The translations under genes and the position numbers were made by a program. Positions 4,201 to 53,913 of a DNA stretch of 64,000 nucleotides are shown here, piece after piece. Source of the DNA: Candidatus Daviesbacteria bacterium (GTDB taxonomy: Bacteria > Patescibacteriota > Microgenomatia > Daviesbacterales > UBA10151); the NCBI GenBank assembly GCA_016187025.1, contig JACPKM010000004.1, positions 228,887-292,886 on the forward strand, given 5' to 3'. Each line of letters begins with the position of its first letter. The first letter of the stretch is position 1. The notes under the pieces were generated by a model. It made no database searches, was not told the DNA's origin, and saw only the letters and a program-made list of their open reading frames with translations.

Positions 4201-4480
4201 GAATTCAGGTTACTCCTTTGACTATAATTGTAATGGAAAAGTAGACATGAACCGTAGTACGCGAAGAACTGGAACAGATTATTGCGAAGATACTGGTAAT
4301 AATGTAAGTTATTATAAAAGCTGTGGTGATGTGAACATTGGAGAGGCTGAATGTGGCACAACAGTTTCCATTGCATGTACATCCTCCACGGTTTGTAATA
4401 CGAAATGTGGTCCAGATGGTTGTTACTTTACTGCATACCAGGGAGATAATAACAATACTCAAACAGTTGCGTGTTATTAA
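1205..4480 (+). CDS. Large secreted surface protein with two PA14-like domains and MopE-like Asp-rich metal-binding motifs
   Basis: N-terminal signal/TM (cleavage-like VFA-QSS). Two copies of the PA14/GLEYA signature (FSSRWKGNITFPPGTYKFYTNSDDGTRVYLG and FSARWKGNFYFKAGTYHFRGGSDDGIRVYIDG). C-terminal DGDTYGDEDG / TDCDDSNNKIY / DEDRDGYTP motifs resembling putative metal-binding (MopE-type) repeats. Confidence 0.6.
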   Translation: MRKIKLAATVIIILILTVIFSIQYQSPVFAQSSCDPANIGTNQLVGCLYNWTSTSNYFATLDTDAPSSDIISSVNTSQVVFGHDWGISSASSTTGADTFSSRWKGNITFPPGTYKFYTNSDDGTRVYLGVGSTANILKNNGTTASWSDHAATLRFESNPVYIGTQTNQLVTLEFYENTTNASIIFGWDYSKADLYIPDLSAPGPYSRGGNYTFTATVTNGGQGVSPAVRGRFCIDNPSCSSNTSGRIGIDDILINNFSSGFSTTITSPTWTATTDSHTVTFCADVAGVVNETDETNNCRTTEFIVLQRCEPNTAGTNQLLGCMYSGTNFNALSITAPEGIILSPPASAVPDSALAISRDWEISPNLTGSLGTTDFSARWKGNFYFKAGTYHFRGGSDDGIRVYIDGVLKTGDLEEWINRSYSEHGLFSVTFDAPGYYLVTLEYYQGTGGAKVKLGWDKDQSTSSDPVSLSFCQSNERNEGLISAKSITDESIFGNLNQICVVDPEKAPFVPFKIPKYDDLKSIYFDQAKQPASFTKHESLTGDKNHNDISTAGSTSHLYHIKKTTPFSADGNLSIRGNFLGDQTGTQTRVVFVDGDLNIGPTPNNTFKHGDGQSGIVFVVKGDINIDKGMEEIDGVYISEGNICTSFNGISCDIVDIRVFTSQLIVNGSLISLNPAKPIQFRRNLIDNTEPGEKVITQVKYLVILKDIFSDTLQRWSEIPADVPIPGSLCGAARTSSDCRQRSIYGAGACEWKECNSGVVSACWPEGTSDLIACPLSATCTANSTFVGINQDVVWNIQASGGINTPYEYFWNEGAGLAAGNQTLTKRYTTTNDAVNVSIRVEQSGSSQYATNACPTVSVGCMKYVDSDGDTYGDEDGELQRIDCSTAGYVANNTDCDDSNNKIYQTLSTAARDEDRDGYTPAAVSNQCVGGTSAISGRTYYKDAAGAFTWLAAASTSIDCYDKNAIAHPYPSGSNPAYQTVRRGGAAVTAISTNPDSARNSGYSFDYNCNGKVDMNRSTRRTGTDYCEDTGNNVSYYKSCGDVNIGEAECGTTVSIACTSSTVCNTKCGPDGCYFTAYQGDNNNTQTVACY

Positions 4481-20353: not shown

Positions 20354-20379
20354 ATAAAAAACCCCCTATTGCTAGGGGG
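20354..20379 (-). terminator. Rho-independent terminator (minus strand)
   Basis: Perfect 7-bp stem CCCCCTA/TAGGGGG with 4-nt loop (20362-20379), preceded on + strand by ATAAAAAA, i.e. a U-tract after the stem on the minus strand. Downstream of the island operon/recG fragment. Confidence 0.5.
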
Positions 20380-20756: not shown

Positions 20757-22670
20757 TCAGGTGTTCTTGACTTTTTTGAAGTCAAAAGCTAGTTTCTTAC
20801 CTTGAGTAATCTGAAAACCAGATACTTCCCATCCAGGAGTTTTTTCTGTGAGCTTTTCTTTAATAATTCTATTTAAATTGGCAACATAACCTTCTATCTC
20901 TCCCCTTTTTAATTCAGCAATTCCTAAGTTTCCTACATGATGATTTTTAACACTTACTCCTCCTGAAGAATCATTTACAAGTTCAACATCAAATGTCGTA
21001 TCTACATTTACAGTTCCAAAAAAGGTTTTTTTCTCTGCATGGACTCCAGCAGAAATAGCCAGTCCTCCTTCAGGCGTAAACTGGTATTGAGGATTTAAGA
21101 TGCGACCATTTGCTGGAAGTGGTAACGTTTTAACATAATCTACAAGTCTGTCAACTCCTGCAACAATTCTTTGTCTTTCAGATCTACTTCCTCTTAATGT
21201 TTCGTTTAATTGATCTATCAGAGATACTCCTGGTTTAGGAGTAATTTCTGTGGTATGTACTTGTGGAACAGCAGGTTTTTCGCTCTTAGTTGGTGGAAAA
21301 GATGGACCCTTGTTTTCTGATATTACAGGTTTTGGTTGTAGATTATTGCTTGGCCTCAATATTACTGCGGGAGATAAGGTTAGTCCGTAGTATCTAATTA
21401 TATCCTGAACGGATTTATATACAGCTCGACCAATACTTGGATCAACAATTTGCACTTCTAAGTTTCCATCACTTGTTCTTCTTACTCTACGTCCAGGTAA
21501 TATAAAGCCTATTCGTCCTGTTTCAACACCTCTTGGACCAATAGTACAGTCATTAATAGGTAAAATTGCTACTGCTCCTTCTTCAACGTTTTGAAGTATA
21601 TCTGCAAGGGAGTTTGTTTCTCTAAATCTTATCTCAGGTGCTTGTAAAGATAATGCGGAAAGTAACTCCTTTATACTTCCACCTCTTTGATGCTCCGTAG
21701 CATATCTACTACCTCCAAGTGCTGCGATCAAAGCACCTTCAGCATGTCTAGAGTGATTAAACCCTTCTCCTAGAAGATGTCTTATAGCATTTTCAGCTGA
21801 AGCAAACACAGAGCTGTCCATTCCAAAAGGATCTGCCTGCGTTCTAATATTTCGTACAGGTTGAGGTTCACGTAAATGCATTAATCTTGGATATCTTTGC
21901 CTGACATCCTTCTCAGCTTCGCGAAACCTCATGAGAGTTTTATCATCAAAATTAAATCCTCTTTCTCTTGCTTCATTCCCCATCCTTGCAAGTTCATTTT
22001 CTAGAACCCTATCAAGTACCCTCCCTGAGTTTGGTGATCCAGAAGGAGTTTTAGTGTCTTTTTTTCCTTCTTTTTGTAATATTCTGGCTTGTTTTAGATA
22101 TACCCACTGTGAACCATAAATTACTGTGGCTGCCTCATCTATTGACTTTGCATATTCTGACTTTACTTTTTCTCTATCTTGAGGTTTATTAGCCTGCTCA
22201 ATTGTCTTTAAAAATCTTTGTGACATTTTTTCAAATTCTAAAGCTGTAGGATAATCTCTTGCTACTCTGTATATATCTCTTGGTACCAGCTGATTTTCTT
22301 GAGTAATATCTCCTCTTCTGGTGGCAAATGAGACCACTCTTCTTAAATGTCTATGGTCTGCATCTTCTCCTTTGAATCTATCAAATACAGCCACTGGATT
22401 TTCTCTATCAGATTGAGCATCAACAGGAGTGGGAATAACAGCTAACAGTTGTCTTAAATCTTTATCACCTATACTACCTGATACCAGTCCTTGATGGTAC
22501 TTATCTTTCTCATCAGTAGTTACATCTACTTTATCCAAAAGTACCAATCTTGGATTTCCTCTGACAATTGAGGCTACTATTTTATTTTGACGTCTAATAT
22601 TAGGGATAGGTTCTTGTTGGGCAACCATTAATGAAGCTGATATTTCAGATGAGTGTTCTGTACTTGCCAT
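20757..22670 (-). CDS. Lineage-specific protein: N-terminal shared domain A (~190 aa) + unique C-terminal region
   Basis: Residues ~25-215 (RRQNKIVASIVRGNPRLVLLD...YGSQWVYLKQARILQKEGKKDT) are paralogous to the N-terminus of 24237..25565 and the C-terminus of 25735..27741. Start set at MAS (22670). No signal peptide. Confidence 0.6.
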   Translation of the reverse strand: MASTEHSSEISASLMVAQQEPIPNIRRQNKIVASIVRGNPRLVLLDKVDVTTDEKDKYHQGLVSGSIGDKDLRQLLAVIPTPVDAQSDRENPVAVFDRFKGEDADHRHLRRVVSFATRRGDITQENQLVPRDIYRVARDYPTALEFEKMSQRFLKTIEQANKPQDREKVKSEYAKSIDEAATVIYGSQWVYLKQARILQKEGKKDTKTPSGSPNSGRVLDRVLENELARMGNEARERGFNFDDKTLMRFREAEKDVRQRYPRLMHLREPQPVRNIRTQADPFGMDSSVFASAENAIRHLLGEGFNHSRHAEGALIAALGGSRYATEHQRGGSIKELLSALSLQAPEIRFRETNSLADILQNVEEGAVAILPINDCTIGPRGVETGRIGFILPGRRVRRTSDGNLEVQIVDPSIGRAVYKSVQDIIRYYGLTLSPAVILRPSNNLQPKPVISENKGPSFPPTKSEKPAVPQVHTTEITPKPGVSLIDQLNETLRGSRSERQRIVAGVDRLVDYVKTLPLPANGRILNPQYQFTPEGGLAISAGVHAEKKTFFGTVNVDTTFDVELVNDSSGGVSVKNHHVGNLGIAELKRGEIEGYVANLNRIIKEKLTEKTPGWEVSGFQITQGKKLAFDFKKVKNT

Positions 22671-22779
22671 AATTATGTATTTTAACATAAATTATAGGAT
22701 AGATCTATCTAGTTAAGAACAAAACCTAACCAATATCAAACCTATAACACTTGACAAAAGGGCATTCATATTCAAGCTC

Positions 22780-24234
22780 CTACTGAATTGAAGAGGTGAC
22801 TGTAGTAGATGGTTCGCCCCTACCCAGTAATTTGTTTTTGACTAATTTTCTAATGGATTGCCAATATTTGTTTACTCTATCAGAAGTATAAGGATCTCCT
22901 CCATCTGGAATGAGCATATGTTGAGGTAGAAATCCGTTTTGAGCTTCATCTCGAATACTTTCTACCTGCATCCCTCTTACATGCTGGAAATTTACAATAT
23001 TATGTGCTCTGTTTACACCTCCGTCCCCCCAATAAGGGTCATGTATGATTATTTCTTTTTGAGGATCTGCTTCTGGTATTGTTGTATCGACATTACTTCT
23101 ATTAAGAAGTAGCTCTTTGGCAAGCCCTAAACCTGAAAGGCCAATAGTGAACAGATTTCCTAAATTTCCCATACCTACAGATAAAAGATTTCTATCAAAA
23201 TCCGGTTGCATCATTCCTTGATCAATTTCTGTTTGCATAAGGTCATAGAGTTCTTTTACAAAAAAGTAATTCTCCTTCACCTTTGATTGAAGCTTTTTTA
23301 ACAAAGCCTTAACCAGGACATTTTTACGATAACTTCTTTCGTCCTGTTTACCATCGGGGTTTTCATCCTCCGCCAGAATAAACCTCATTGCTGTTAAAGT
23401 ATCCATCTGCTGAGGACCGGCTTTAATAAGTTTTGGACCATATTCTTGACCACCTAGTTTAAAGGGTCCAGTTAGGTGATCTTTTTGCACCTGCACATCT
23501 AAAGGACCAACTTTATCCAAGAGATCTCTGATTACTGTATCTTTTATAACCATCTGGTAATCTATTGCCAAACCTGTGGCTTCTTCCACAACTTCTCGAA
23601 CTTGATCAAACTTTCCTTCACGATAAACATGACGCATATACATAGTTTGCACTCTTCCATCACTTTGTCTTTTTTCTAAATTCGGTGTTCTTATATCGCG
23701 GCTTAAAGATACTGACCTGATTTTTCCAGTTTTCAAATCATAAGAGATGACTGTAGGTGATCCACCATAGTTTGCATAACTTTCTCCATGCTCTTCCCAA
23801 TATACCCATAAAACTGCATTAACTGTGTTGTCGCTAAGTTCCTTATCAACCCTTTTACTATATTCCGGATCGTTTCTTTCTCTTTCTGCTCTTTTGCGGT
23901 ATGCCTGTTCAACAAAAGGTTTTAGGAGTTCATTAGTAAGTTTTACTTCTTTAACTGGTGGTTTAGTTGGTTCAGCAGTAGCGGTTGGAGGTAGTGGGGG
24001 TTGATCTCCTTTTGAAGGTATATTTGTAGGGGGAAAATGCTGATTTGATTCTACTCGAGGAGTTCGCAATAATCCTGGAACTAGTAAAGAGGCGAAACCC
24101 GCAGCGACAGCAGCACCACCACCCAATAAAAATCTTCTCCTGGAAGCATCCGGAGGGATAGCTCCAGATTCACCGAGTCTTATGAAATTAACTTTTCCTC
24201 CTAAAATTGGATCTATTTCAGATATTGGTTCCAT
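22780..24234 (-). CDS. LytR-CpsA-Psr (LCP) family protein with twin-arginine-type N-terminal signal/anchor
   Basis: SRRRFLLGGGAAVAAGFASLL (S-R-R-x-F-L motif + hydrophobic h-region). LCP-like blocks: VISYDLKTGKIRSVSLSRDI (cf. ...VSIPRDT), GLAIDYQMVIKDTVIRDLLDKVGPLDV (cf. IDYY..GF..IVDAVGGVDV), DTLTAMRFILAEDENPDGKQDER (cf. ALAFTR.R..D..GDF.R). Confidence 0.6.
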   Translation of the reverse strand: MEPISEIDPILGGKVNFIRLGESGAIPPDASRRRFLLGGGAAVAAGFASLLVPGLLRTPRVESNQHFPPTNIPSKGDQPPLPPTATAEPTKPPVKEVKLTNELLKPFVEQAYRKRAERERNDPEYSKRVDKELSDNTVNAVLWVYWEEHGESYANYGGSPTVISYDLKTGKIRSVSLSRDIRTPNLEKRQSDGRVQTMYMRHVYREGKFDQVREVVEEATGLAIDYQMVIKDTVIRDLLDKVGPLDVQVQKDHLTGPFKLGGQEYGPKLIKAGPQQMDTLTAMRFILAEDENPDGKQDERSYRKNVLVKALLKKLQSKVKENYFFVKELYDLMQTEIDQGMMQPDFDRNLLSVGMGNLGNLFTIGLSGLGLAKELLLNRSNVDTTIPEADPQKEIIIHDPYWGDGGVNRAHNIVNFQHVRGMQVESIRDEAQNGFLPQHMLIPDGGDPYTSDRVNKYWQSIRKLVKNKLLGRGEPSTTVTSSIQ

Positions 24235-24236
24235 AA

Positions 24237-25565
24237 TTATCTTAATTTAGGTAATCTTATACCTAAGAATTTAGATCTTGCCGGTTTTGGCGATAAATCT
24301 AAAAGAATCTTTGCGCAGTAGCTTAAAGCTAATAATTTACCATTTATCTCAGGTGTTGGAGCATAGCCCCTCCTACCTACATTTTGTGTATATTCATAGA
24401 TATCTTTATAAACTTCTCTGTCAGCAAAAGGCTTGGTCCTGGGATGCTGCATCCTGGAATTAATATGGTTAACAATTAAGTTTGCAAGACTCGCCTTTTG
24501 GCTTATTGTAAGAGTAGTATCTCTAAGAAAGGTTGAAGACAAATGTTGATAGACTCTACGAACCAGATCTGATGATAAATTAGTTAAATTTCTGGCAACA
24601 TTGGGCCAATCTGAGGCCAGGCCTTGAAAAATAAAGGTTAACTCTGGATTGGAAAGAGCTGTAAAATTTCTTCTATTTTCTTCTGTGTCGAAAAATAATG
24701 GCCTGGAAAAATAAAGTCCTAATTTTACCCGAAGCAATGAACGTTGTTCTGGTGTTAGACTCATAGTTTGAGTTGTGTGATCCACAAGCGATTCAATCAT
24801 GGAAGCTACAGTTGTAGCTTCTGCAGGTTGAAGGTCGGGAACCGGGTTTATATTTACTATGTCTGCTTCAGCGGGTTTTAAGACTATCTCGACATCTGGT
24901 GCTGCAACAACTTTTACCTTGGCTGCTTCAGTGTCTTTCCTTCCTTCTTTTTGTAATATTCTAGCTTGTTTGAGATAAGTCCATTGGCCGGCATAAATAG
25001 CTTGTCCGATAGTATCAAGTGTACCGATATACTCTAGCCTAACTTTTTCTCTATCTTCTGGCCTGTTTGCTTCTGAAACAGCTTTTAGTACTTGTGGAAT
25101 TACTTGTTCAAAATCTAAAGCAGTAGGTAGTTTTTCAGTTACGGCATAAAGATCTGATGCTTTGATTTGGTCTTGTGGAGTGATGCTTCCTCTGGTAATA
25201 AAGGCTACCGCTCTTCTCATGTGTCGTTGTTGGAAACCATCTCCCTCAAATCTTGCAAACAAATGTACTGGATTTCTACTATCTGGTGCAGCTTGAACAG
25301 CTGTCGGTAATATGGATACAGCTTTTTTAAAGTCTATTGCAGCTATAGTTCCTTCTCTAATACCTTTGGCAAAGTTTGCTCTTTCATAATCGCTTATTGG
25401 TACTACATCAGGTAATAGTAAACGGGGATTGCCGCGCAATACAGCTGCAATTATTTTATCTTGTCTTCTTGGATTAGGCTCTAGTCTTTCAGGGGGTAAT
25501 AAAGTTATTGAAGAGCTATCAGTTCCTAAAGGATTAGATGAATTACTTTCTGCTGCCTCTGCCAT
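24237..25565 (-). CDS. Lineage-specific protein: N-terminal shared domain A + unique C-terminal region
   Basis: RRQDKIIAAVLRGNPRLLLPD...YAGQWTYLKQARILQKEGRKDT domain A (aa ~30-215). C-terminal 220 aa unrelated to 20757 gene. Start 3 nt after LCP gene stop. Confidence 0.6.
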   Translation of the reverse strand: MAEAAESNSSNPLGTDSSSITLLPPERLEPNPRRQDKIIAAVLRGNPRLLLPDVVPISDYERANFAKGIREGTIAAIDFKKAVSILPTAVQAAPDSRNPVHLFARFEGDGFQQRHMRRAVAFITRGSITPQDQIKASDLYAVTEKLPTALDFEQVIPQVLKAVSEANRPEDREKVRLEYIGTLDTIGQAIYAGQWTYLKQARILQKEGRKDTEAAKVKVVAAPDVEIVLKPAEADIVNINPVPDLQPAEATTVASMIESLVDHTTQTMSLTPEQRSLLRVKLGLYFSRPLFFDTEENRRNFTALSNPELTFIFQGLASDWPNVARNLTNLSSDLVRRVYQHLSSTFLRDTTLTISQKASLANLIVNHINSRMQHPRTKPFADREVYKDIYEYTQNVGRRGYAPTPEINGKLLALSYCAKILLDLSPKPARSKFLGIRLPKLR

Positions 25566-25734: not shown

Positions 25735-27741
25735 TTATTTTCCTTGTCGCATTTGTTGCTCTAATATTCTGGCTTGTTTGAGATAGACCCATTGTGAGCC
25801 ATAAATTGTCATACCAACCTTATCTAAAACACTAACATACTCTAATCTAATCCTCTCTCTATCTTCTCGTTTATTTGCTTGCTCAACTGCAAGTAATAGC
25901 GTTGGTATTGTTTGCTCAAAATTAAGGGCAGTTGGAAACCGTTTTGCAAAAAAAGCAAGATCTGCAGCGGTTATTTGATCATGAGAGGTAAGATTACCTT
26001 TTGTCACATAAGAAACAATTCTACGCATCCTCCGAGCATCATCCGTAGCTTCCTTAAATTTAGCGAACAGACTTACTGGGCTTTCTGGATCTTTTTCATA
26101 TGCTAAAGAAGTTCGAATAACTTTAATCATATTTAAATACTGTGTTGATCCAATAACACCATCACGAACTCCCTTTTGGAAGAGTGCTCGCTCTGCTTCT
26201 GAAACGACAACTTTATCAACCAACACAAGACGATGATCTCCCCTTACAATCGCTGCAATTATTTTATCTTGTCTTCTTGGATCCGGAGAAGTATTTAGCT
26301 CAACTTGTGATTGTTCAGATGGCTTTTGTCTTACTTGGGATTCCCCTGTTTTGGTAGAGGATGGTAATTGGGGGCCTTGATTCCATGAGTCCATATAAAC
26401 GGTTGCCATATTAGTTTCGCCCCTTTTTATTGACTCTTGCATTCTTCTAGATCTTTCTATAAATCTGCTCATGTCTGTAATTACTATCCGGCTTCCGTGG
26501 ATATCTTTAGGGTCTCCTATGATTGTATATTGAATACCAACCATTTCTAGGTGAGTTCTATAAAACCAAGAATTCTTGCCCAAATGTTCTCCTTCCTCGT
26601 AGCCATTAATCACTTTATTTAATATTTGAGTTATTTCCGCTTTAAGTTGCTCTACCTTTGCTGGATTAGAATAATCAAACATGGGGAACTGATTTACATC
26701 TAAAGCCCTCATCTTAGCTTCTGCAGATGTATCACCAAATGGAATCTGTCTTCCTTGGCCTTCTAAATAGCTGCTTAATCCCCGCCTATTATTTGTGATT
26801 AATACTGTTCCATCACCGGCATATCCGAGTGTTCCTTTTGCTTTTCTTAGTGATCGTATTGTTTTCCCAGTCCATTCTTGTTCTCCTGTTTTTAGCGCAG
26901 AAGGGTAACCTCCAATCGCAGAGTAAATCGATGACTTCATTACAGAGTTTGCCCCAAATAAGTTTACATTTCCATTAATAAAACCACGTTTATCAAGCAG
27001 ATTGACAAATTCTGTTTTAGCATGAACAGCTGGAAATCTGGTAAAGGATTGAGGATCAAATAAAAGGTTTCCAACAGCACCTTCTTTATCAGGATGTTCT
27101 CTAAAATATTTTAAATATTCTTCTAGGTATTGTGGATTTAAGCCCTCACAATCAGCATCGTTACTCAGTAGTAATATATCCTTATAAACTCCCGCATTTT
27201 CTGTTCTTATTAGTGCAAGATCAGTTTGAATTTTTCTAATATTCCCAATCTTTACCTGCTCGTCTGGTAAGGTTGCTGCCACTAAGCGAATATTTAACCT
27301 AGGGAAAGTTTTTCCAGCACGTTTCACTTCTACAACAGTGGCTTTGTATGCGTCTTTTTTACTCTGCATTTGGGATTCAGGAGCGTTCACAAAAACGATT
27401 AACTCAAATTTTTTTGAGTCTAGTGTTTGTTCAGAGTAAAGTTTTAATGTCTTAAATATATTCCTTGCTTCTTGTATACCAGCAACCGGTATACAAACTA
27501 CGGCTTCTGTTTCAGGACGCATGCTTTTACCAATTTGACTATCTAGTCTTTTCAGTTGTGCTAAGTATTTTGGATCCTGTCTTTGTAGGTAACTTCTTCT
27601 TTCTGTGACCGGGTCTAATTTAGCATTTGGATTTTGTAATAATGTCGGAGAGGCAGCTACTCGATCAACTAAACTTACTTGTCTTAAGGTAAATGGGTTA
27701 TCAGGTGTGGATATGATATCTGCTGTTGGATCTTGGTCCAT
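25735..27741 (-). CDS. GT-A-like glycosyltransferase-domain protein with C-terminal domain A
   Basis: aa ~78-430 paralogous to the giant protein region aa ~1310-1710 (AVVCIPVAGIQE..., DxD-like SNDADC, GANSVMKSSIYSAIGGYP, EEGEHLGKNSWFYRTHLEMVGIQY). aa ~487-668 = domain A (PRRQDKIIAAIVRGDHRLVL...SQWVYLKQARILEQQ). Confidence 0.6.
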   Translation of the reverse strand: MDQDPTADIISTPDNPFTLRQVSLVDRVAASPTLLQNPNAKLDPVTERRSYLQRQDPKYLAQLKRLDSQIGKSMRPETEAVVCIPVAGIQEARNIFKTLKLYSEQTLDSKKFELIVFVNAPESQMQSKKDAYKATVVEVKRAGKTFPRLNIRLVAATLPDEQVKIGNIRKIQTDLALIRTENAGVYKDILLLSNDADCEGLNPQYLEEYLKYFREHPDKEGAVGNLLFDPQSFTRFPAVHAKTEFVNLLDKRGFINGNVNLFGANSVMKSSIYSAIGGYPSALKTGEQEWTGKTIRSLRKAKGTLGYAGDGTVLITNNRRGLSSYLEGQGRQIPFGDTSAEAKMRALDVNQFPMFDYSNPAKVEQLKAEITQILNKVINGYEEGEHLGKNSWFYRTHLEMVGIQYTIIGDPKDIHGSRIVITDMSRFIERSRRMQESIKRGETNMATVYMDSWNQGPQLPSSTKTGESQVRQKPSEQSQVELNTSPDPRRQDKIIAAIVRGDHRLVLVDKVVVSEAERALFQKGVRDGVIGSTQYLNMIKVIRTSLAYEKDPESPVSLFAKFKEATDDARRMRRIVSYVTKGNLTSHDQITAADLAFFAKRFPTALNFEQTIPTLLLAVEQANKREDRERIRLEYVSVLDKVGMTIYGSQWVYLKQARILEQQMRQGK

Positions 27742-27779: not shown

Positions 27780-30700
27780 CTATTTGAGTTGATTATAGGC
27801 GTTAGATAAATCTATTAACATTTGATCAGTAGTTTGGTATCTATTTCTTGGTTCTGGATCAAGCCCCTTAATAAATATTCTTTTAATACTATCAGGTATG
27901 TTTGCTGGAATTTCAAATCTTCCATTCGTATGGGCTTCATATTCTCTTTCTAGTAATCTTTGCGTTGATTCACCTTTAAATCTTGGAACATTAAATGGGA
28001 AATTACCAGTCATTAACTTATATAGCAATACTGTTAATTCATAGGTATCGCAGCTTAAAGTAACATTAGGGTTTTCTCTAAAAAGTTCTGGAGGTCTAAT
28101 ATGTCTATTTCCTCCTACAAACCCTCTCCTAAATTTCCCCCCGGTACCTTTAATGCTACCTGCATCAAAGTCGATTATTTTTATACCTTGCTCGCCCAGT
28201 AGGATATTAGAAAGTGCAATATCAAGATGTACAATACCTGCATTATGAAGCTCTCTTATAGTTTCTGCAATTTTTATAGTAGTAGCAATTGCTTGCTGGG
28301 GTGGTAAAGACCTATTTGTCGCAAAGTAATGCTCTAAATCAGTATTTTGAAGTGGATAAATTTTAATGATTTCGTCACCGTTATCAATTTCATCTATAAA
28401 AGTACCAAATGTAGGGCTTGTTGTTTGTGCCTTGATTATTGTTTCTAGATCTTTTACTCCATCTGGATAACGATTTGCTTTTGCAATGTATTCTCTTTCA
28501 CTCTTTTTTACCCTTTTAAACGACAAAATCTGTCCAGTTGTTTTATTGTATCCTGCAACAATTTGTCCCATTTGACCTGATCCTAAAGGTTTATCTAAAC
28601 AAACCACATAATCACCAAATTCTTGAATTTGCGTGCTCTCCTTTAGCTTTTCTAGATCATACTTTGGAGCAGTTGTTGTAGGTATAACTACTGGGTTTTC
28701 CTTATTAAACTGATCCAAAGCGTTATCCGCTTCTGCTTTTTCTGCTAACTCACGTTCTTTTCTTGTGATATCCAAGTTTTCTAGTTCTTTTTGGAATTCA
28801 TCCTCAAGTCTGGTAAGCTCAGCCAAAGTTTCTGGAGTTCCTTTACCTGCTTTTATATCTCTGAGTAATACTCCAATCTTTTGATAGTGTTTTAATCCTC
28901 TAACTAAAACATCCATATTTATTATAACCACATTACCATTTACTACTTTGTACTGGATTCCCGACCATCGTAGTGCACGTTGGTAATATTCAGAGTCCTT
29001 GCCAAGTCTTTCGCCATGTTCGTAAATATCAAGTGTTTTATTAATAACTGTCTCCAATCCTTCTTTGAATTTAGCAAGTTGAGCGGGATCATCGTAATTA
29101 ATATTTTCTCCTTCCCCAAGTTGCATTCTTCTGATTTCATCATCGAAGGCACTGAATTCTTTTTGCCATTGATCTAAAGGAACAATTCCATCCTTGATTG
29201 CGGCTATGGCTCGTCTGGCTGATGTGTATAGCCTGGATACTCTTGTTCCCGCGAAGGTAACTCTTTTATGGTCCTGTCGACCTTCAATAATTCCCCAGCC
29301 AATCGCAATATCTTCCCCGCCTTCAGAACCTGGTAAATAACCACCAATAGCAGCATAAATACTTCCACGAAACGCAAAGTTTGCTCCACTTGAAGGCATT
29401 CGCCCGCTGCGGTGGCGACCAATTACGGCTAAATTCTGAAACAAACGCGTACCAATATGTAATAGTGGATATTTAATATAAGCTTCCGGATCCCAATCGA
29501 GTTGACCCAGCATTCCATCTACTTGCGGGTTTTGTTCAAACTTCTGAATGAAGTTACTTAAATATGTTGGAGCAATACCTTTGTTATCTGCATCGTTACT
29601 TATTAAGATTATATCTTCTGCTTTAGGACCTCTCTGATATTGCCTAAAAAGTGCAATATCATTTAAATACTTTCTGATAGTGCCAATGTTTGCCTGCTTT
29701 ATAGGGAGCGCTTTAACTACCACTCTAATAGGCACATCAGGATGATCTTTTCTAAATCGTTCTATTTCTGATAAGGTGTTATCGGGTTTGACTGGTTCTC
29801 CTTGTTTATCAGTTTGTGGGTAATTTACAAAAAGCAAGATCTCATATTGGTCCTTAGAAGCATCCTGAGGTAGATAATTTGCCAAAGAGTTATAAATATT
29901 TCCTCCTTCTTGATGTCCTGCTACCGGAATACAAACTATAGCCTTTAAGTTCACCGAAGGTTCTTCTTTAATCTGTCCTGTTAACTGTTTTATTTCTTGA
30001 TAATATGCTGGATTCTGCTTTTCAAAATACATCTGTGCTTCTTGGTATGAATTTAGTTTTGCATTGGGGTTTTGCTTTAATGTTTTAGATCTATTTTTTG
30101 CTAAGATTTTCAAAATTTCCTCTCTTGGCCTGCCTCCATAAAGAGAGCCAGGAGGTATAAGTCTTTCTTCAAATGGTAGAGGGTGATATGGGGCAAAAGG
30201 GGTTGCCCAGAGCTTATCTGCAGGTATTTCTGCTGGTAAAGGTGGGATATATTTAATTGCTTCAGGCGGGGTAAGCTTAAACCCTTCGTGAGGCGGTCTG
30301 GGCTCAGGAATAGGAATTGCCTCCCCCGGAATAGTAGTTGGAATCTTTTGAACTTCCCCCGGACCAACTGTTGTTGAAAGTATAGTTCTTACCATGGATC
30401 CATCCGGCCTTTTTTCAACATGCGCAACCTCAATAAATTCTACATTCTGAAAGTTTCCCCATTTGTTCCTAATGGGATTTCCATTTTGATCCAGATTAAA
30501 TAAAGCTTTTGTTAAAGGAGAGTTAGCATCTAAATTAAGTTTTCCCTGCATAAGCTCCGGATGGGTTTGGGCATTAATTACCACTACTTGTCTTGCCTCA
30601 TCAGCTGCATGATCAGGAGTAATTAAAATCTCAAAATTTCGATAACCATTTTGAGAAATATCTTTTGCAAGCCTGCCGTATTGTGAATCAATGGAAAAAT

Positions 30701-33700
30701 CCCAGTTTACCCCTCTTTTTCCATCAGGCAGAAGCTGTGATCTCATCTGGGAAAAGTCCAGCTCAACTTGTCCATCTTTTACCCTGTGATGAAATTGCAG
30801 TTCTTTGCCGTCTATTCCAATTATATTGCCAGTATCCTTACTGCCTGCTGGTCTGCCGTCAGCAAATCTTCTTATGGTGTCGTTATCATGCCAAAGATCA
30901 CGTCTGGCCCGGTCTACCTCCCCAATTTCTTTATGTTCTCTTATAAAACCAAAAAAATCTTTATCAACAATCTTATCGGGACTTTTCTCATATCTTATTC
31001 CAGGAGGTGTTTCAAATTGCTTAGACTCAATTGCCCATCCTTCTGTTTTGAGCCTGGATTGGACACTGTCCCAGTTAACATTTGCATTAGCCGGATCCTG
31101 CGGGTCAAAAGACAAAGCTCCTTCCTGGTCAAAATGGCCCACAATCCAAGCATTATCAGGGCTTTTTATATCAGGGTTACCCAGAAAAATAGAAACAGAG
31201 CCACGGTCTTTGTTCAAATCCACAATTGAGCTTCCGTGGATAAAAGTTAAGTCCTGCTCCGGTGAGCTGGCAAAATTCTTAATCTTTTGATGAATATTAA
31301 AATCAGGGTTATCATAGATTTCTCTTGTCCATCCTGTATCAGTTACTAAATTTTTAATTTTTGGATCAAGGCTGGCTTCAGCTCCTGAAATAACCAGTGA
31401 GCCTTCTGAGGTAACCCTCACCGGAGGACCGGCAATTGTCTGCCCGGTAGCCCTGTCTATAAAATGTGCATTGTGCCCATTATCCGCTCCATAGTTTGTT
31501 GCTAAAGTCAGATCATTGTTAAGGTCGTAATTTTTAGGATTATCAAAAGTTTGTTTGAAAGTATCCCTTGCTAATCCAGGTGCTCTTGTAGGTGTCCACC
31601 TGGTTTCAAAAAAGCCCCTTCCATCCATCATGTTTTGAACACCCCTGACAGCCAGTCCTCCTGCAAATCCTAAGGTAGATGCAAAAATTGTTGCTCCAGC
31701 TGCCTGGCGGACTCTGTAGTTTCTTGCTGCTCCATTTTTTGCTCTTTTGTCATCACTGATTTCCTGGTCAACAACATCAAATTGCTCTGACAGTAAAGTA
31801 TTAAGTTGTGCCGCATCTGTAATCTGGGACCTTAACTTTTGCTCAAGCCTTGCTGCAGCATCAACCAACTGAGCAACTTCCTGATCTGCTAAAACATAAT
31901 TTTTACCGTAAGTTATATACTCACTTTTTTCTCTTCTTCCTCTAATAAGTCTTACTCTAATTTCCTGCATTCTTCTTGCTACTTCTTGCTGGTTGGTCGT
32001 GTTGGATAAATCCAATGTGAGTAATTGATCAACTCCCGCTTGGAGATGATTTTGACCTCCGCCATCAAGCAGTTGCTTTGCAGAAAAGGTTTGGTAGCGG
32101 GATCTTTCCATATCCCGCCTTCTTTCTGTACCACGCAGTCTTCCCCATAGCCCTCCATTTGCCTGCATATCAGGTACTGTTCCACCTAAAGCAACCTCTG
32201 CTGCATGCATTTTTTGCTGATGTGCGACCTCTCCTAGTCTTCTTAACCCTACAACTCCTCCTCCTGCAACCGCACCAAGAATTAATCCTCCTAATGGTCC
32301 TGCTAAAGCTGTGCCTCCAACTACAGCGCCTATCCTCACCCCGCCATTTGCAGCTTTTAGCAGCCCATCTGCCCCCAGCGAAACCGCTGCTCCCACAAAC
32401 AGAGGGTTTAGAATTGTTCCTGCCAGCAGACTGTCGCCGCCCTTTACTAAACTTTCAGCCCGTCTTCTTCTTGCCCAGGCAACAGTTTTATCTGTGGCTG
32501 TGAGGTTTTCGGTATTACCGGCAAATCTTGCATTTGCAAGCCTTATGGTGACATAAGCATCAATTTGGTCAGCTCCTTCCTGGTGTTTTGCCAGATTATC
32601 TTTGAGCTTTAGCCCCATTTCCAAAAGATCTGTTGCAAAATAATCAGCAATCTGCCCAAAACTTTCAGCTTGATTACCAAATAGTTGCCTGATTAAAGGA
32701 TTATCCATATTGTTTTGGACAAACTGAGTTAACTGCCTTCTAACATCTTCTTTTCTTTGTCTAATTTCAGCTTCATTTTGAGGAACATTACCAGTAACAA
32801 TAGGGGTAAGGATGTCTTTAATAATTTTGCCTCTTAAGTCATTTTGTTCAGGAGTGTTTTTATCTAGTGTAATAATTTGCTCTCCATTTAGAGTTTGATT
32901 TGCTTTTAATCTGCCCAACACTGCTTGCTGTTGCGCATCGGTACTGTGTCTTAGATCATTTAGTCTTTGTGCAGCTTCTTGAGAGAGGCCTCTCACTGGA
33001 GAGCCATCAAAAAATGATTTTCTCATCTTTTCGTACATTAGATTAACCGCTCCACCTCTGCCGAGTCTTACTCCTATCATTGAGGGAATTCTCCAAATAT
33101 CCCTCCAGCCTTTAAACTTCAAAAACTTTTCTACCTCTTTTTGTGCGTCCAGGTGCAAAACTTTTTCAATAACGTCTGTATTTCTGGTAATATTTATTTC
33201 AACCTCTCTTTGTTCTGGCTGAGAAGATGGAGATGGTTCTACTCCTGGTCTTCCTGGGGTGTCAACAGGTGCAGGAGCTGCAGCAGGTGCGCCGCCTGGA
33301 GCAGAAGCTGCAGGAGCTGGGGAGGGGGCAGCAGGCTGTTTGACAGGTTGCAGAGTATCTGGATCAACCAGCTCCCTTCTTGCCTCCAATGCAGGCTTGG
33401 CAACCTCAAGCCAGTCTTTATCTGGTTCTCCTCTTTTTCTGGAATCCTGATATGCAAAATACGCCTCTTGTTGTAAACGGGCTTTAAATTGTGGACTTGA
33501 TTCATCGTGAGCATCAGGATGCACCTCTTTATAAGCCTTACTGCTTGCTTTTAAAACTTTAATTGCATTTTGAATTTTCTTCCTCTCATTTTTATTAGTT
33601 GTAAAAAGAGCTTCCTCGTTTAACAGTTCAAGAAGCCCGTCAATCGGAACACCCTCACTTTGGCTGAAAGCTTGCCCTGTTTGGGGATCTGTAAAGTTGT

Positions 33701-34010
33701 TTGTAAAACTAAACCCGCCCTTTGCGATATCAGCTTTATTTTTAGGATCAGGTTGATTGCTGCTATCCGGGTGGGGTGCAAAAGCGCCTTGGATAGCTTC
33801 ATAAGCATGTCTTGCCTTGTTTATCTTACCTGTTTGATTGGGGTCTGCAAGCAAACTTGGGTTATTTAAAAGCCCCTCAATTTTTGTTAGTCCAAAACGT
33901 AGAGCATTTTTGACTTGTTGCCGGCTAGGAATTTCCGGGGTGTTAATTTTACCAGGATGACTTTCTATATCTTGAACTGAGACAGGGTTTTCTGTTGGTT
34001 GGCCGTTCAT
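27780..34010 (-). CDS. Giant (2076 aa) multidomain protein: Pro/Ala-rich linker, glycine-zipper hydrophobic segments, GT-A-like domain, C-terminal Ser/Thr protein kinase-like domain
   Basis: Pro/Ala-rich aa ~221-267 (nt ~33210-33350, locally GC-rich). Gly-rich hydrophobic aa ~528-589 and ~769-790 (GAAVSLGADGLL...GAVAGGGVVGL). GT-A-like aa ~1355-1580 (AIVCIPVAGHQEGGNI; ILISNDADN DxD). Pro-rich linker aa ~1222-1290. Kinase aa ~1795-2076: LGSGQMGQIV G-loop, LSFKRVKK, HNAGIVHLDIALSNILL catalytic loop, IIDFDAG (DFG-like). Confidence 0.7.
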   Translation of the reverse strand: MNGQPTENPVSVQDIESHPGKINTPEIPSRQQVKNALRFGLTKIEGLLNNPSLLADPNQTGKINKARHAYEAIQGAFAPHPDSSNQPDPKNKADIAKGGFSFTNNFTDPQTGQAFSQSEGVPIDGLLELLNEEALFTTNKNERKKIQNAIKVLKASSKAYKEVHPDAHDESSPQFKARLQQEAYFAYQDSRKRGEPDKDWLEVAKPALEARRELVDPDTLQPVKQPAAPSPAPAASAPGGAPAAAPAPVDTPGRPGVEPSPSSQPEQREVEINITRNTDVIEKVLHLDAQKEVEKFLKFKGWRDIWRIPSMIGVRLGRGGAVNLMYEKMRKSFFDGSPVRGLSQEAAQRLNDLRHSTDAQQQAVLGRLKANQTLNGEQIITLDKNTPEQNDLRGKIIKDILTPIVTGNVPQNEAEIRQRKEDVRRQLTQFVQNNMDNPLIRQLFGNQAESFGQIADYFATDLLEMGLKLKDNLAKHQEGADQIDAYVTIRLANARFAGNTENLTATDKTVAWARRRRAESLVKGGDSLLAGTILNPLFVGAAVSLGADGLLKAANGGVRIGAVVGGTALAGPLGGLILGAVAGGGVVGLRRLGEVAHQQKMHAAEVALGGTVPDMQANGGLWGRLRGTERRRDMERSRYQTFSAKQLLDGGGQNHLQAGVDQLLTLDLSNTTNQQEVARRMQEIRVRLIRGRREKSEYITYGKNYVLADQEVAQLVDAAARLEQKLRSQITDAAQLNTLLSEQFDVVDQEISDDKRAKNGAARNYRVRQAAGATIFASTLGFAGGLAVRGVQNMMDGRGFFETRWTPTRAPGLARDTFKQTFDNPKNYDLNNDLTLATNYGADNGHNAHFIDRATGQTIAGPPVRVTSEGSLVISGAEASLDPKIKNLVTDTGWTREIYDNPDFNIHQKIKNFASSPEQDLTFIHGSSIVDLNKDRGSVSIFLGNPDIKSPDNAWIVGHFDQEGALSFDPQDPANANVNWDSVQSRLKTEGWAIESKQFETPPGIRYEKSPDKIVDKDFFGFIREHKEIGEVDRARRDLWHDNDTIRRFADGRPAGSKDTGNIIGIDGKELQFHHRVKDGQVELDFSQMRSQLLPDGKRGVNWDFSIDSQYGRLAKDISQNGYRNFEILITPDHAADEARQVVVINAQTHPELMQGKLNLDANSPLTKALFNLDQNGNPIRNKWGNFQNVEFIEVAHVEKRPDGSMVRTILSTTVGPGEVQKIPTTIPGEAIPIPEPRPPHEGFKLTPPEAIKYIPPLPAEIPADKLWATPFAPYHPLPFEERLIPPGSLYGGRPREEILKILAKNRSKTLKQNPNAKLNSYQEAQMYFEKQNPAYYQEIKQLTGQIKEEPSVNLKAIVCIPVAGHQEGGNIYNSLANYLPQDASKDQYEILLFVNYPQTDKQGEPVKPDNTLSEIERFRKDHPDVPIRVVVKALPIKQANIGTIRKYLNDIALFRQYQRGPKAEDIILISNDADNKGIAPTYLSNFIQKFEQNPQVDGMLGQLDWDPEAYIKYPLLHIGTRLFQNLAVIGRHRSGRMPSSGANFAFRGSIYAAIGGYLPGSEGGEDIAIGWGIIEGRQDHKRVTFAGTRVSRLYTSARRAIAAIKDGIVPLDQWQKEFSAFDDEIRRMQLGEGENINYDDPAQLAKFKEGLETVINKTLDIYEHGERLGKDSEYYQRALRWSGIQYKVVNGNVVIINMDVLVRGLKHYQKIGVLLRDIKAGKGTPETLAELTRLEDEFQKELENLDITRKERELAEKAEADNALDQFNKENPVVIPTTTAPKYDLEKLKESTQIQEFGDYVVCLDKPLGSGQMGQIVAGYNKTTGQILSFKRVKKSEREYIAKANRYPDGVKDLETIIKAQTTSPTFGTFIDEIDNGDEIIKIYPLQNTDLEHYFATNRSLPPQQAIATTIKIAETIRELHNAGIVHLDIALSNILLGEQGIKIIDFDAGSIKGTGGKFRRGFVGGNRHIRPPELFRENPNVTLSCDTYELTVLLYKLMTGNFPFNVPRFKGESTQRLLEREYEAHTNGRFEIPANIPDSIKRIFIKGLDPEPRNRYQTTDQMLIDLSNAYNQLK

Positions 34011-34012
34011 TA

Positions 34013-34351
34013 CTAGTTTGTAACTGGTGTAGAAATAACTGTATTCCCAAGATATAAATCCCTAAAATCCAACATAGCTTTGGCAAACACATCCTCTGAG
34101 TTGGGAATTTTTTCTTTTAAGAATTGTTGAATTTCTTGTTGTGGCCTTTTTTGGTCCACCATTTGGCTGAATTGGTCTAAATGTTCAGGGGGCAAATTAT
34201 CCAAAATAGTTGTAGACAGGAAATTATCAAGTCTGACATATAAATCATCGATTAGCTGCTTGTGCATATTCCCGTCTGCAGCAGTGATACCTGCCTCTGT
34301 TAATAGATTGTCTAAATAGCCCCTAACTTCTGGTGGAATTTGGTTATCCAA
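34013..34351 (-). CDS. Small acidic protein translationally coupled to the giant gene (candidate chaperone/adaptor)
   Basis: 112 aa, acidic, helical-looking. Its TAG stop is separated by 2 nt from the giant gene ATG (TAG-ta-ATG). 250-bp AT-rich putative promoter region upstream. Confidence 0.5.
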   Translation of the reverse strand: MDNQIPPEVRGYLDNLLTEAGITAADGNMHKQLIDDLYVRLDNFLSTTILDNLPPEHLDQFSQMVDQKRPQQEIQQFLKEKIPNSEDVFAKAMLDFRDLYLGNTVISTPVTN

Positions 34352-34602
34352 AAAACTTCACCTCCTTATTCATACTTAATTCCAGTATTTCACTAATAAT
34401 AATATGTTGTCAACAGGAAACCCGCTATTTATACTTAAAACACATGTTATTTGTTTTTGTGTTTTTACTTGAGTTGTTTTTGTTGTATTTCTTATCTAAA
34501 AATTTGATAAAAGAGTTATCCGTAATTCTTCTAAAAATAAGCAAGTATAACCATTCATTTACTGTTAATATTTTGGCTGTAGTTTTTTTGCCTGGGACAA
34601 TA

Positions 34603-53804: not shown

Positions 53805-53886
53805 CCGGAGGTGGCAGAGTAGTCAATTGCACCAGACTGTAAATCTGGCGGGTTTCCCTTCGAAGGTGCGAATCCTTCCCTCCGGA
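53805..53886 (+). tRNA. tRNA-Tyr (anticodon GTA), long variable arm, CCA not encoded
   Basis: Hand-folded: acceptor CCGGAGG/CCTCCGG, D-stem GCAG/TTGC, anticodon stem CCAGA/TCTGG with loop CTGTAAA (GTA), 13-nt variable arm, T-stem GAAGG/CCTTC with unusual T-loop TGCGAAT, discriminator A. Confidence 0.7.
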
Positions 53887-53913
53887 CACCGGATTAGTTA
53901 TAATCTATTAATT

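Follow-up and report, generated by a model that had tools for sequence, protein, structure and literature searches.

The closest described counterparts of the locus analysed here fall into several systems. Inverting GT2 glycosyltransferases (GTs) of the GT-A fold include PcManGT (6yv7), the wall-teichoic-acid enzymes TarP, TarS and RmlT, SpsA and K4CP, and the processive membrane GT2 synthases (hyaluronan synthase, BcsA and chitin synthase) bear hydrophobic helices on the same polypeptide. In the bacterial Hanks-type Ser/Thr kinases PknB and StkP the kinase domain is N-terminal and is followed by a transmembrane helix and a sensor domain. Large glycosylating toxins (TcdA/TcdB, PaTox, Legionella Lgt/SetA) and polymorphic toxin loci with small helical partner proteins (CdiA, Rhs, LXG) offer further comparisons.

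The window, the whole stretch of 64,000 nucleotides analysed from a Candidatus Daviesbacteria contig, holds a minus-strand open reading frame for a giant protein of 2076 aa (Table 1), identical to an NCBI record named 'protein kinase [Candidatus Daviesbacteria bacterium]'; chance origin of a 2076-codon open frame in ~38% GC DNA would be far beyond expectation. A sequence-only reading had claimed this frame, and its residue numbers agree with the translation. The strand was absent from that reading, its numbering matching the minus strand. All its motifs were located, on the GT side IVCIPVAGHQE (aa 1358-1368) and ILISNDADN (aa 1468-1476), and in the kinase LGSGQMGQ (aa 1809-1816), HLDIALSNILL (aa 1928-1938) and IIDFDAG (aa 1945-1951), as were both of its linkers, one Pro/Ala-rich and one Pro-rich. 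The N-terminal region has neither a signal peptide nor a Pfam match and is matched by 9 of 150 relatives (phmmer); the middle region, for which a Pfam search likewise gave no match, is matched by only 8 of the 150.

Table 1. Features of the giant gene and its same-strand neighbourhood (positions in the window).
Feature	Position	Strand	Evidence
Promoter-like site TTGACA-18-AATACT, best on strand, just upstream of DUF5663 gene	34384..34413	-	consensus match only
DUF5663 gene, 112 aa, upstream partner	34013..34351	-	Pfam PF18908, E 1.7e-11
Giant ORF, 2076 aa	27780..34010	-	translation, NCBI identity
N-terminal hydrophilic region, aa 1-221	33348..34010	-	translation; weak conservation
Pro/Ala low-complexity linker, aa 222-266	33213..33347	-	translation
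Anchor module N2, conserved, aa 360-789	31644..32933	-	profile built from relatives
Hydrophobic segment 1, aa 527-551	32358..32432	-	Kyte-Doolittle 1.70
Hydrophobic segment 2, aa 559-590, glycine-zipper-like, then RR	32241..32336	-	hydrophobicity, insertion energy
Hydrophobic segment 3, aa 770-791	31638..31703	-	insertion energy
Middle region, aa 792-1221, variable	30348..31637	-	comparison of relatives
Pro-rich linker, aa 1222-1292	30135..30347	-	translation
GT2-like GT-A domain, aa 1293-1720	28851..30134	-	model, Foldseek, conserved motifs
Atypical Hanks-type kinase domain, aa 1795-2076	27783..28628	-	Pfam Pkinase, PDB matches
668-aa leaderless protein: GT' domain, C-terminal X domain (~180 aa)	25735..27741	-	sequence comparison
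442-aa leaderless protein, X domain first	24237..25565	-	sequence comparison
LCP (LytR-CpsA-Psr) protein, one N-terminal anchor	22780..24234	-	Pfam PF03816, E 3.7e-12
643-aa leaderless protein: N-terminal X domain, C-terminal domain	20757..22688	-	sequence comparison
Terminator-like hairpin, then T run, 3' of 643-aa gene	20362..20379	-	consensus match only

Sequence comparison places the protein in a large family of giant proteins, hitherto undescribed and spread across Patescibacteria (the candidate phyla radiation, CPR), which are ultra-small bacteria; the family is new, the folds it contains are already known. An exhaustive profile search returned 1048 cluster representatives, nearly all of 1000-2900 aa and 419 of them below 1e-30, and 48 family loci lie in MAGs mostly labelled CPR (Levyibacteriota, Paceibacterota, Saccharibacteria, Uhrbacteria and others). 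Some 20 records bear labels such as 'uncultured Gammaproteobacteria', 'Planctomycetales' or archaeal names, presumably mislabels. The conserved core is a ~400-aa anchor module with three Gly/Ala-rich helices (N2) together with a divergent GT2-type GT-A domain. N2, detected with its profile in 114 of the 150 top-ranked representatives and without a relative by sequence in Pfam or the PDB, runs from a helical region through two adjacent Gly/Ala-rich hydrophobic helices and an Arg-rich loop of ~180 aa to a third hydrophobic helix. The middle region and the tails are far more variable than the GT domain: a kinase follows the GT, in the same fusion order, in 30 of the 150 relatives (~20%), and other C-terminal tails comprise PP2C, which takes the kinase's position in some relatives, a calpain-like protease, a J domain (DnaJ) and, in one relative, a YkuD L,D-transpeptidase domain.

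Conservation within the giant protein is highest in the GT domain (45-57% identity across phyla), which comprises a conserved helical lead-in (aa 1293-1339), the core (aa 1340-1720) and a helical/beta C-terminal extension. Its GT-A fold, as the sequence-only reading had supposed, is evident from a structure model (pLDDT 88.7) that gave 136 Foldseek matches in the PDB at E <= 1e-3, the best 50 of these 136 being GT-A enzymes, mostly GT2. As in GT2 enzymes, a DxD motif (DAD, D1473/D1475) lies after the fourth strand and an acidic ED motif (E1566/D1567) is present, its match to the GT2 catalytic Asp being presumed; an RR pair (R1599/R1600) is the remaining key element. The non-catalytic C-terminal extension resembles those of TarP and RmlT. 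However, sequence identity to the GT2 enzymes is just 11-18%, the domain is embedded from residue 1340 of 2076, and the invariant motifs IPVAGHQE, GQLDWDPE, SSGANFA and TSARRA are peculiar to the family. Relatives match Pfam Glyco_trans_2_3, as in the processive synthases, with which the giant protein shares hydrophobic helices on the same polypeptide, but here these precede the GT domain by ~550 residues, no channel-forming helices follow it, and the literal QxxRW motif is absent. The giant's own GT falls below the threshold of every Pfam GT model, as it might if the GT and kinase were degenerate binding modules of a largely non-catalytic structural envelope protein, a view also favoured by loss of the ED aspartate in all eight paralogous GT' copies and by a kinase with neither catalytic-loop Lys nor DFG Gly. 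We hold this to be very improbable, since DAD, ED and ~100 further GT positions are invariant among 12 relatives and, the loop Lys apart, the kinase retains all the residues needed to bind ATP and transfer phosphate.

The protein-kinase fold, likewise proposed beforehand, is established by a Pfam Pkinase match over aa 1807-2061 (90.6 bits, cut-off 31.7, E 1.4e-25) and by PDB sequence matches to StkP, PknB and Pim-1, the first two being the best. Key residues are the GSGQMG loop, K1832, E1856, H-L-D1930-I-A-L-S-N1935, D1947-F-D and PPE (1973-1975). Across 34 kinases of the family, conservation extends to K1832, E1856, D1930, N1935, D1947 and PPE as well as to the Asp of alpha-F and the Arg of RY. 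The domain shares with PknB and StkP the full-length match, Lys-Glu pair, catalytic Asp and Asn, Mg-binding Asp and APE-like motif. Unlike them it is non-RD (HLD), stands at the extreme C-terminus behind the GT, has lost the catalytic-loop Lys (Ala here, Ser or Ala in nearly all of the 34) and has DFD for DFG, as do most of the 34, many of which also have a degenerate glycine loop. Lacking the loop Lys and with DFD, it is an unusual Hanks-type subtype. The changed loop Lys, the DFD and the degenerate glycine loops would also suit a kinase that phosphorylates the sugar installed by the GT, so that an envelope polymer would carry a phosphorylated glycan. Analogues are the LPS core kinases WaaP and KdkA and the eukaryotic protein O-mannose kinase. 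The DFD gives a DxD as Kdo-type kinases have, a secondary Pfam match is to the Kdo/WaaP family (E 1.1e-5), and the GT-kinase order recurs among relatives. Such a pair is nevertheless improbable in our estimate: the Pkinase match extends over the APE-like PPE, alpha-F Asp and RY motif of the protein-substrate lobe, StkP and PknB lead the PDB matches, and the presence of a PP2C protein phosphatase in the kinase position points towards protein phosphorylation.

The giant gene's ATG lies 2 nt after the DUF5663 stop codon, and the two proteins would be made together by translational coupling. Of 49 related loci, 31 have a DUF5663 homologue directly upstream in the same orientation, separated by at most 40 nt, and 38 have a DUF5663-like ORF at some position; in most of the others the contig ends within the giant ORF, leaving no upstream sequence to read, and DUF5663 is a conserved upstream partner in most loci with readable upstream sequence. 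It may act as a chaperone or adaptor; the supplements of PMC10633639 record that a Southlakia epibionticum DUF5663 protein has matches to two chaperone folds, trigger-factor C-terminal and LTXXQ, and that another DUF5663 protein is essential in Tn-seq. Downstream, the GT' domain of the 668-aa protein (aa 31-436), in which no hydrophobic segment was found, is 33% identical to giant aa 1308-1711; it keeps DAD and has EQ for ED, a GEQE/AEQE variant seen in 8 of 8 second-copy domains. GT', separate here, follows the first GT within one fused polypeptide in P0003, P0004, P0005, L020 and L021, and probably works with the giant protein. Residues 486-666 of the same protein are 49% identical to aa 30-210 of the 442-aa protein, to which the X domain of the 643-aa protein is 47% identical, and aa 461-640 of the latter match the tails of giant relatives P0018, P0010 and P0075; neither protein has a leader or hydrophobic segment. 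Promoter-like sites in the region are no more numerous than expected by chance.

The hydrophobic segments that had been pointed out are indeed present. Segment 1 has a crude 19-residue insertion energy of +3.9, against at least 8.7 for the remainder of the giant protein, the pattern of segment 2 is conserved in the alignment of relatives, and segment 3 (+2.85) is similar to the single anchor of the LCP neighbour (+3.1). At +2.9 to +3.9 the three helices are only marginally hydrophobic, and membrane anchoring itself is therefore something we infer. The best reading, which we hold tentatively, is a membrane-anchored multi-enzyme using nucleotide sugar and ATP at the cytoplasmic membrane face; a membrane-anchored enzyme, the alternative already named in the sequence-only reading, fits at least as well as its toxin comparison. 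Held at this face, the GT would bind a nucleotide sugar via DAD and a divalent cation and pass the sugar, with inversion, onto an acceptor close to the membrane, either a protein or a lipid-linked glycopolymer of the envelope, and the kinase would phosphorylate a partner or the giant protein itself. GT2, kinase, PP2C and J domains depend on cytoplasmic cofactors. The GT', 442-aa and 643-aa domains are leaderless yet fused to the giant C-terminal half in relatives, which indicates one shared compartment, and the LCP gene of the same-strand cluster was also counted towards a cytoplasmic location. Against this, the LCP homologue occurs in none of 48 other family loci, one relative carries YkuD, normally active outside the membrane, and in 59 relatives helix 3 is preceded by a mean of 5.83 K+R and followed by a mean of 1.00, a strong positive-inside signature that, with a helix 1/2 hairpin, predicts a 1290-aa catalytic half outside the cell. 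The variability of the middle region and tails relative to the GT also counts against the multi-enzyme reading.

An exported catalytic half would be expected of a host-directed effector platform, with the N-terminal part in the episymbiont's cytoplasm and membrane, helix 3 as signal anchor, and a variable stalk, Pro-rich linker, GT and kinase reaching the host cell at the contact site. There the enzymes would modify host targets with host nucleotide sugar and ATP, while relatives would deliver PP2C, protease or J domain and DUF5663 would be the export chaperone. The sequence-only reading had likened the protein to glycosylating toxins and effectors; membership of the toxin family is not supported, as this is a chromosomal family across CPR with a conserved small partner gene, and an effector role is kept as a rival, albeit an unlikely one, because of the family-wide helix 3 asymmetry and the variation of the C-terminal domains (kinase, PP2C, calpain-like protease, DnaJ, YkuD), to which the variable middle region may be added. 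Membrane-inserting toxins also bear Gly/Ala-rich, marginally hydrophobic helices, and TcdA/TcdB-type toxins are likewise very large proteins pairing a GT-A domain with weakly hydrophobic helices. Like the producers of glycosylating toxins, the bacterium that makes the giant protein lives touching another cell. Cultivated CPR members are described as obligate epibionts (PMC10633639). As in polymorphic toxin loci, enzymatic tails vary, the gene just upstream encodes a small helical protein (with the S. epibionticum chaperone-fold matches in the PMC10633639 supplements), and downstream genes open with a segment homologous to the preceding gene's end, in the manner of orphan cassettes. In contrast to the toxins, the GT is GT2-like, toxin GTs being absent among the structural matches listed, the order of domains is reversed, with the GT late and behind the hydrophobic region, Pfam searches detected no autoprotease or receptor-binding repeats, and the family is conserved and chromosomal rather than an accessory virulence gene. 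In contrast to polymorphic toxin loci, the giant protein has no recognised trafficking domain, the locus has no immunity genes, and it is an enzyme domain, not a delivery scaffold, that is most conserved, which is unusual for an effector. Its closest folds are housekeeping GT2 enzymes, GT' and the other tail-domain proteins are soluble and leaderless, and a search for known secretion, adhesin, receptor-binding or immunity elements detected none, nor was machinery for crossing the host envelope identified at the locus.

The great length, the Gly-rich hydrophobic stretches and the enzymatic domains at the C-terminus, together with a local rise in GC at 30-34 kb of the window, could also suggest a tape-measure or ejection protein with enzymatic add-ons in a prophage or island. 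Such a mobile-element or phage origin is effectively refuted: neither the GT domain nor the anchor module was matched in 50,697 phage records, a plasmid gave one weak match only, and the window also holds recG, ATP synthase, a tRNA synthetase and a PBP, which indicate a chromosomal core setting, recG being nearby again in six other family loci. The GC rise is due to coding rich in Gly, Ala, Pro and Arg.

The open reading frame picked out in the sequence-only reading runs uninterrupted through 2076 codons on the minus strand, and all the motif strings quoted there lie at the residue numbers assigned to them (Table). An identical protein is on public record as 'protein kinase [Candidatus Daviesbacteria bacterium]', and the C-terminal kinase that had been proposed is borne out by a match to Pfam Pkinase (PF00069) over aa 1807-2061 (E 1.4e-25, 90.6 bits against a curated threshold of 31.7), spanning profile positions 5-255 of 263. 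Among solved structures, StkP, PknB and Pim-1 come closest to it in sequence; a match to the MADS6 defence kinase of NCBIfam was rejected as generic kinase similarity (50 bits against a cut-off of 460). We read conservation from an alignment of 34 distinct family kinase domains. The ATP-binding elements are present (GSGQMG, aa 1810-1815; β-3 Lys, K1832; α-C Glu, E1856), the Lys and Glu being conserved in at least 90% of the 34 and the glycine loop, canonical here, being degenerate in many relatives. D1930, N1935, D1947, the α-F Asp and the RY arginine are also conserved among the 34, as is PPE (aa 1973-1975) where APE is expected. The catalytic loop reads H-L-D1930-I-A1932-L-S-N1935, keeping the Asp and Asn with Leu for Arg and Ala for Lys; the giant kinase departs in this from the HRDxKxxN pattern, whose Lys is typical of Ser/Thr kinases, and the Lys position is Ser or Ala in nearly all relatives. 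The Mg-binding motif is DFD, with D1947 present, and DxD in most relatives. Non-Arg after His, Ser or Ala for the loop Lys and DxD for DFG are thus atypical traits common to the family kinases. As read from sequence, the domain is a bona fide kinase fold of unusual subtype and is likely to be catalytically competent; set beside both the atypical loop and the conserved catalytic residues, a largely non-catalytic scaffold is a very doubtful description of the giant protein.

Features of the giant protein, its gene and the downstream genes
Feature	Coordinates	Strand	Remarks
Giant ORF	27780-34010	minus	uninterrupted, 2076 codons
Low-complexity linkers	aa 222-266, aa 1222-1292		giant protein
Hydrophobic stretches	aa 527-551, 559-590, 770-791		giant protein
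IVCIPVAGHQE	aa 1358-1368		giant protein
ILISNDADN	aa 1468-1476		giant protein
LGSGQMGQ	aa 1809-1816		giant protein
HLDIALSNILL	aa 1928-1938		giant protein
IIDFDAG	aa 1945-1951		giant protein
668-aa GT' gene	25735-27741	minus	first gene downstream of giant gene
X domain copies	25735-26277, 24936-25478, 22065-22604	minus	~180 aa, 47-49% identity
C-terminal domain of 643-aa protein	aa 461-640, window 20766-21308	minus

Pfam has no match throughout aa 1-1300 of the giant protein, and the glycosyltransferase (GT) region alone has none at E ≤10, nor any in NCBIfam or PDB sequence searches. An AlphaFold model from a two-sequence alignment reached a pLDDT of only 38; the final model, for which a 25-sequence alignment was used, has a pLDDT of 88.7 and a pTM of 0.86 and shows the single Rossmann-like α/β/α domain of the GT-A fold. 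Foldseek finds 136 PDB matches to it at E ≤1e-3, headed by PcManGT, RmlT, TarS, TarP, hyaluronan synthase, BcsA and K4CP. The GT-A assignment first made from motifs therefore stands and can be refined, on this predicted model, to a divergent GT2-like GT-A domain. A family GT profile run against PDB sequences matches glycosyltransferases only, several annotated GT2 (E 0.012-0.17), and among the 25 relatives PF13632 (Glyco_trans_2_3) is matched by nine (best E 1.2e-5) and PF13641 by six, the giant protein's own GT domain having no membership in the curated GT2 sequence model of Pfam. The DAD motif (D1473-A-D1475) is invariant in alignments of 25 and of 12 relatives and kept in ~190 family GT domains, R1599-R1600 is invariant among aligned relatives, and E1566-D1567, a candidate counterpart of the catalytic Asp in the ED/TED motif of inverting GT2 enzymes, is invariant in first-copy GT domains.

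In its working the giant protein resembles a GT2 enzyme coupled with a Hanks-type kinase, and it departs from each of three known systems. Toxin glycosyltransferases (TcdB-like GT44, Lgt-like GT88) do not occur among the structural matches listed (the best 50 of 136), and neither an autoprotease, a delivery domain nor receptor-binding repeats were found by Pfam/NCBIfam in the giant protein and 22 full-length relatives. With the structural and architectural tests both failed, the toxin analogy drawn in the sequence-only reading falls as a statement of family membership and survives as a minority functional hypothesis. The processive GT2 synthases (BcsA, HAS, chitin synthase) carry channel helices behind the GT domain and a QxxRW motif, whereas the giant protein has no hydrophobic segment past aa 791, 150 relatives have none past the GT domain, and an invariant SxRR stands in the family where QxxRW is absent; this identity was also rejected. 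A recognised polymorphic toxin system was set aside in turn, as the giant protein has no recognised N-terminal trafficking domain and is followed not by a cognate immunity gene but by a GT paralogue, X-domain proteins and a LytR-CpsA-Psr (LCP) gene.

A word-indexed search with the non-kinase part of the protein returned a single relative, P0002, which aligns over aa 112-734 and aa 1273-1710 and keeps DAD and GED without a kinase; the same type of search gave mostly short fragments with the GT profile and no match with the anchor profile. An exhaustive profile search, started from a two-sequence profile with a cut-off of E ≤1e-3, found 1048 cluster representatives (419 at E ≤1e-30), nearly all 1000-2900 aa long. 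Scored with the family profile, the GT domain of the giant protein reaches 796 bits; for aa 360-789 the anchor profile of the family gives E 1.2e-106. As the anchor module (profile of aa 360-789) is detected in 114 among the best 150 of the 1048 representatives, the family core consists of anchor module, variable middle and GT domain. Behind the GT domain a homologous kinase follows directly in 30 among the same best 150, and other relatives carry a PP2C phosphatase (best E 7.5e-67), YkuD, a calpain-like cysteine protease, a J domain or a second GT domain. The idea that the kinase phosphorylates the very sugar the GT domain installs is improbable. The anchor module, the middle region and this GT subfamily all lie outside the curated families: at E ≤1 Pfam has no match for the N-terminal region, anchor, middle, X domain or neighbour tails, and the anchor profile finds only chance-level matches in the PDB. 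The family is new and widespread, built from known folds. Some members are larger still than the giant protein: the open frame crosses the whole of the fetched DNA in two loci labelled 'uncultured Planctomycetales', L047 (2-17536, at least 5845 aa) and L041 (2-11821, at least 3940 aa), both with the same GT domain. In the Peribacteria locus L008 (6632-11362 and 11417-13978) an 853-aa ORF without a leader encodes the GT-kinase module separately, starting 55 nt past a 1576-aa ORF that also has a GT domain; this may be a fission variant or an assembly frameshift.

A locus scan of one genome per species used the 12-sequence alignment, the 25-sequence alignment having no stretch conserved enough, and recovered 48 loci. 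Labels from the candidate phyla radiation (CPR) comprise Levyibacteriota, Paceibacterota, Saccharibacteria, Peribacteria, Uhrbacteria, Moraniibacteriota, Nomurabacteria, Magasanikbacteria, Buchananbacteria, Berkelbacteria and Gribaldobacteria, the loci L010, L020, L028 and L037-L039 being from Saccharibacteria; ~20 records labelled, for example, 'uncultured Gammaproteobacteria' or 'Planctomycetales', or with archaeal names, are presumed mislabels. The window is ordinary chromosomal DNA of a CPR bacterium, with core genes for recG, a class I tRNA synthetase, NUDIX, an F-type ATP synthase operon and a class A PBP, and recG also lies near the giant gene in six other loci. GC is raised to 0.41-0.44 at window 30001-34000 from 0.36-0.38 in the flanks, but this stretch is the one that encodes the N-terminal two-thirds of the giant protein, where Gly, Ala, Pro and Arg are abundant, and the rise so looks like an effect of coding composition and not of foreign DNA. 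No record in the phage collection has the GT domain or anchor module, the viral structure library yields only generic GT2 matches, and the plasmid collection gives one weak match, a hypothetical protein of Rhizobium rhizogenes plasmid pC6.5b (L050, record 76518-77249) with 30% identity over 61% of the GT domain (E 8e-5). The giant gene family is vertically inherited and chromosomal, not a mobile element, and an origin in a phage or mobile element is effectively refuted. The pC6.5b protein, which is the sole plasmid-collection match from outside the radiation, adjoins a condensation-domain protein and small-molecule enzymes.

Directly upstream of the giant gene lies a DUF5663 gene (112 aa) whose stop codon is 2 nt from the giant gene's ATG. 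A same-strand DUF5663 homologue with a gap of at most 40 nt is found in 31 of 49 related loci, and in most loci without one the giant ORF leaves the contig end, so that there is no upstream sequence. Anchor module, distinctive GT domain and adjacent same-strand DUF5663 gene thus occur together in the window. A literature search gave no mention of DUF5663. The tables of a study of the cultivated Saccharibacterium Southlakia epibionticum do list tandem DUF5663 genes, SEML1_0162 and SEML1_0163, one of which scored essential in Tn-seq, and its structure-based tables pair a DUF5663 protein with the trigger-factor C-terminal and LTXXQ folds (PMC10633639). These genes follow an essential 767-aa hypothetical protein and not a giant GT protein, and keyword look-up in those tables shows no kinase and no obvious giant-protein orthologue beside DUF5663 (PMC10633639), so DUF5663 is also found in other contexts.

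Downstream, the GT' protein shares 33% identity with the giant GT domain over ~400 residues. Such a second GT copy is fused directly behind the first in five relatives (P0003, P0004, P0005, L020 and L021) and is a separate downstream gene in three genomes. Second copies are seen in L038 and L011 as well as in those five and in the window, and all eight keep DAD and have GEQE or AEQE in place of the first-copy GED. GT' can accordingly be described, by its sequence, as a distinct conserved paralogue subfamily, possibly a non-catalytic partner. The X domain (P-x-x-RRQ-x-KI...QW-x-YLKQARIL) ends the 668-aa GT' protein and begins both a 442-aa and a 643-aa protein; it belongs to no Pfam family and has no match across the 48 related loci. 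With the end of one gene recurring at the start of those that follow, the arrangement resembles a spare-cassette layout. Over its last 180 residues the 643-aa protein is homologous to the tails of three relatives (P0018, P0010 and P0075), in one of which, P0010, this tail domain precedes a PP2C domain; the window therefore encodes in a gene apart a module that is fused to the giant protein elsewhere. The LCP gene lies between the 442-aa and 643-aa genes, and no homologue occurs in the other loci of the scan. Shortly before the DUF5663 gene lies the best promoter-like site on the minus strand, and past the 643-aa gene comes a hairpin with a T run; both are consensus matches only, and would fit a six-gene unit.

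Where the catalytic half of the giant protein resides is a matter on which the evidence conflicts. A crude 19-residue scan gives the three hydrophobic helices of the anchor module insertion energies of +2.9 to +3.9, against at least 8.7 in the rest of the protein and +3.1 on the same crude scale for the single anchor of the LCP protein. In 59 relatives the flanks of helix 3 carry a mean of 5.83 Lys+Arg on the N side and 1.00 on the C side; for a protein that lacks a signal peptide and has helices 1 and 2 paired as a hairpin, the positive-inside rule would make everything past aa 791 extracellular. GT2 enzymes, kinases, PP2C and J domains, however, need nucleotide sugars, ATP or cytoplasmic partners. 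The GT', 442-aa and 643-aa proteins have no leader and no hydrophobic segment, and as domains of these leaderless proteins are fused to the giant C-terminal half in relatives, a shared compartment is implied. The Cys content of the proteins was tried as a proxy for their location and is uninformative, as nearly all window proteins have at most 0.5% Cys.

We tentatively favour, at a little under an even chance, a membrane-anchored multi-enzyme at the cytoplasmic face. Here the giant protein would act together with the GT' paralogue and DUF5663, its GT2-type domain transferring sugar onto a membrane-proximal acceptor and its kinase phosphorylating a partner or the giant protein itself. The main rival is an effector platform directed at the host, with the C-terminal half exported and active inside the host cell. 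This would account for the charge asymmetry of helix 3, the swappable tails and variable middle, the small chaperone-like partner (DUF5663) and the cassette-like downstream genes, but is hard to square with so conserved a GT domain and with the leaderless partner proteins, and we regard it as possible and rather unlikely. A specific, contact-dependent version is more doubtful again: anchored in the symbiont membrane, the protein would export its C-terminal 1290 residues through helix 3, and the GT domain and cargo would enter the host, with DUF5663 as chaperone and the X genes as spare tail cassettes. The cargo would be the kinase here and PP2C, calpain-like protease, J domain or YkuD in relatives, and together with the GT domain it would reprogramme the host envelope or signalling.

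Patescibacteria have genomes of ~1 Mb and live attached to other microbes, and to our knowledge very few molecular means of their interaction with hosts have been described. That at least 0.5% of the genome is given to one gene, kept with its partner across many phylum-level lineages, indicates an important function. The public annotation reads only 'protein kinase', and the first 1800 residues have no curated family; as defined here, the family is marked by the anchor module, a new GT2-like subfamily, the DUF5663 linkage, the ED-to-EQ paralogue and the swappable tails, which make it a concrete target for genetically tractable Saccharibacteria. If the catalytic half is exported, the family would be a candidate for the long-sought host-manipulation machinery of CPR epibionts; if cytoplasmic, it would mark a lineage-specific envelope glycosylation system.

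Two further genes in the window deserve comment. A 1091-aa CARDB and PA14 protein (window 1205-4480, plus strand) has 34 cysteines (3.1%), compared with at most 0.5% in almost all other window proteins checked, and is probably a disulfide-rich surface protein. The TTG listed as the start of the class A PBP ORF (53827-56475, plus strand) falls within a tRNA-Tyr gene (window 53805-53887), and the true start of this PBP must therefore be further downstream.
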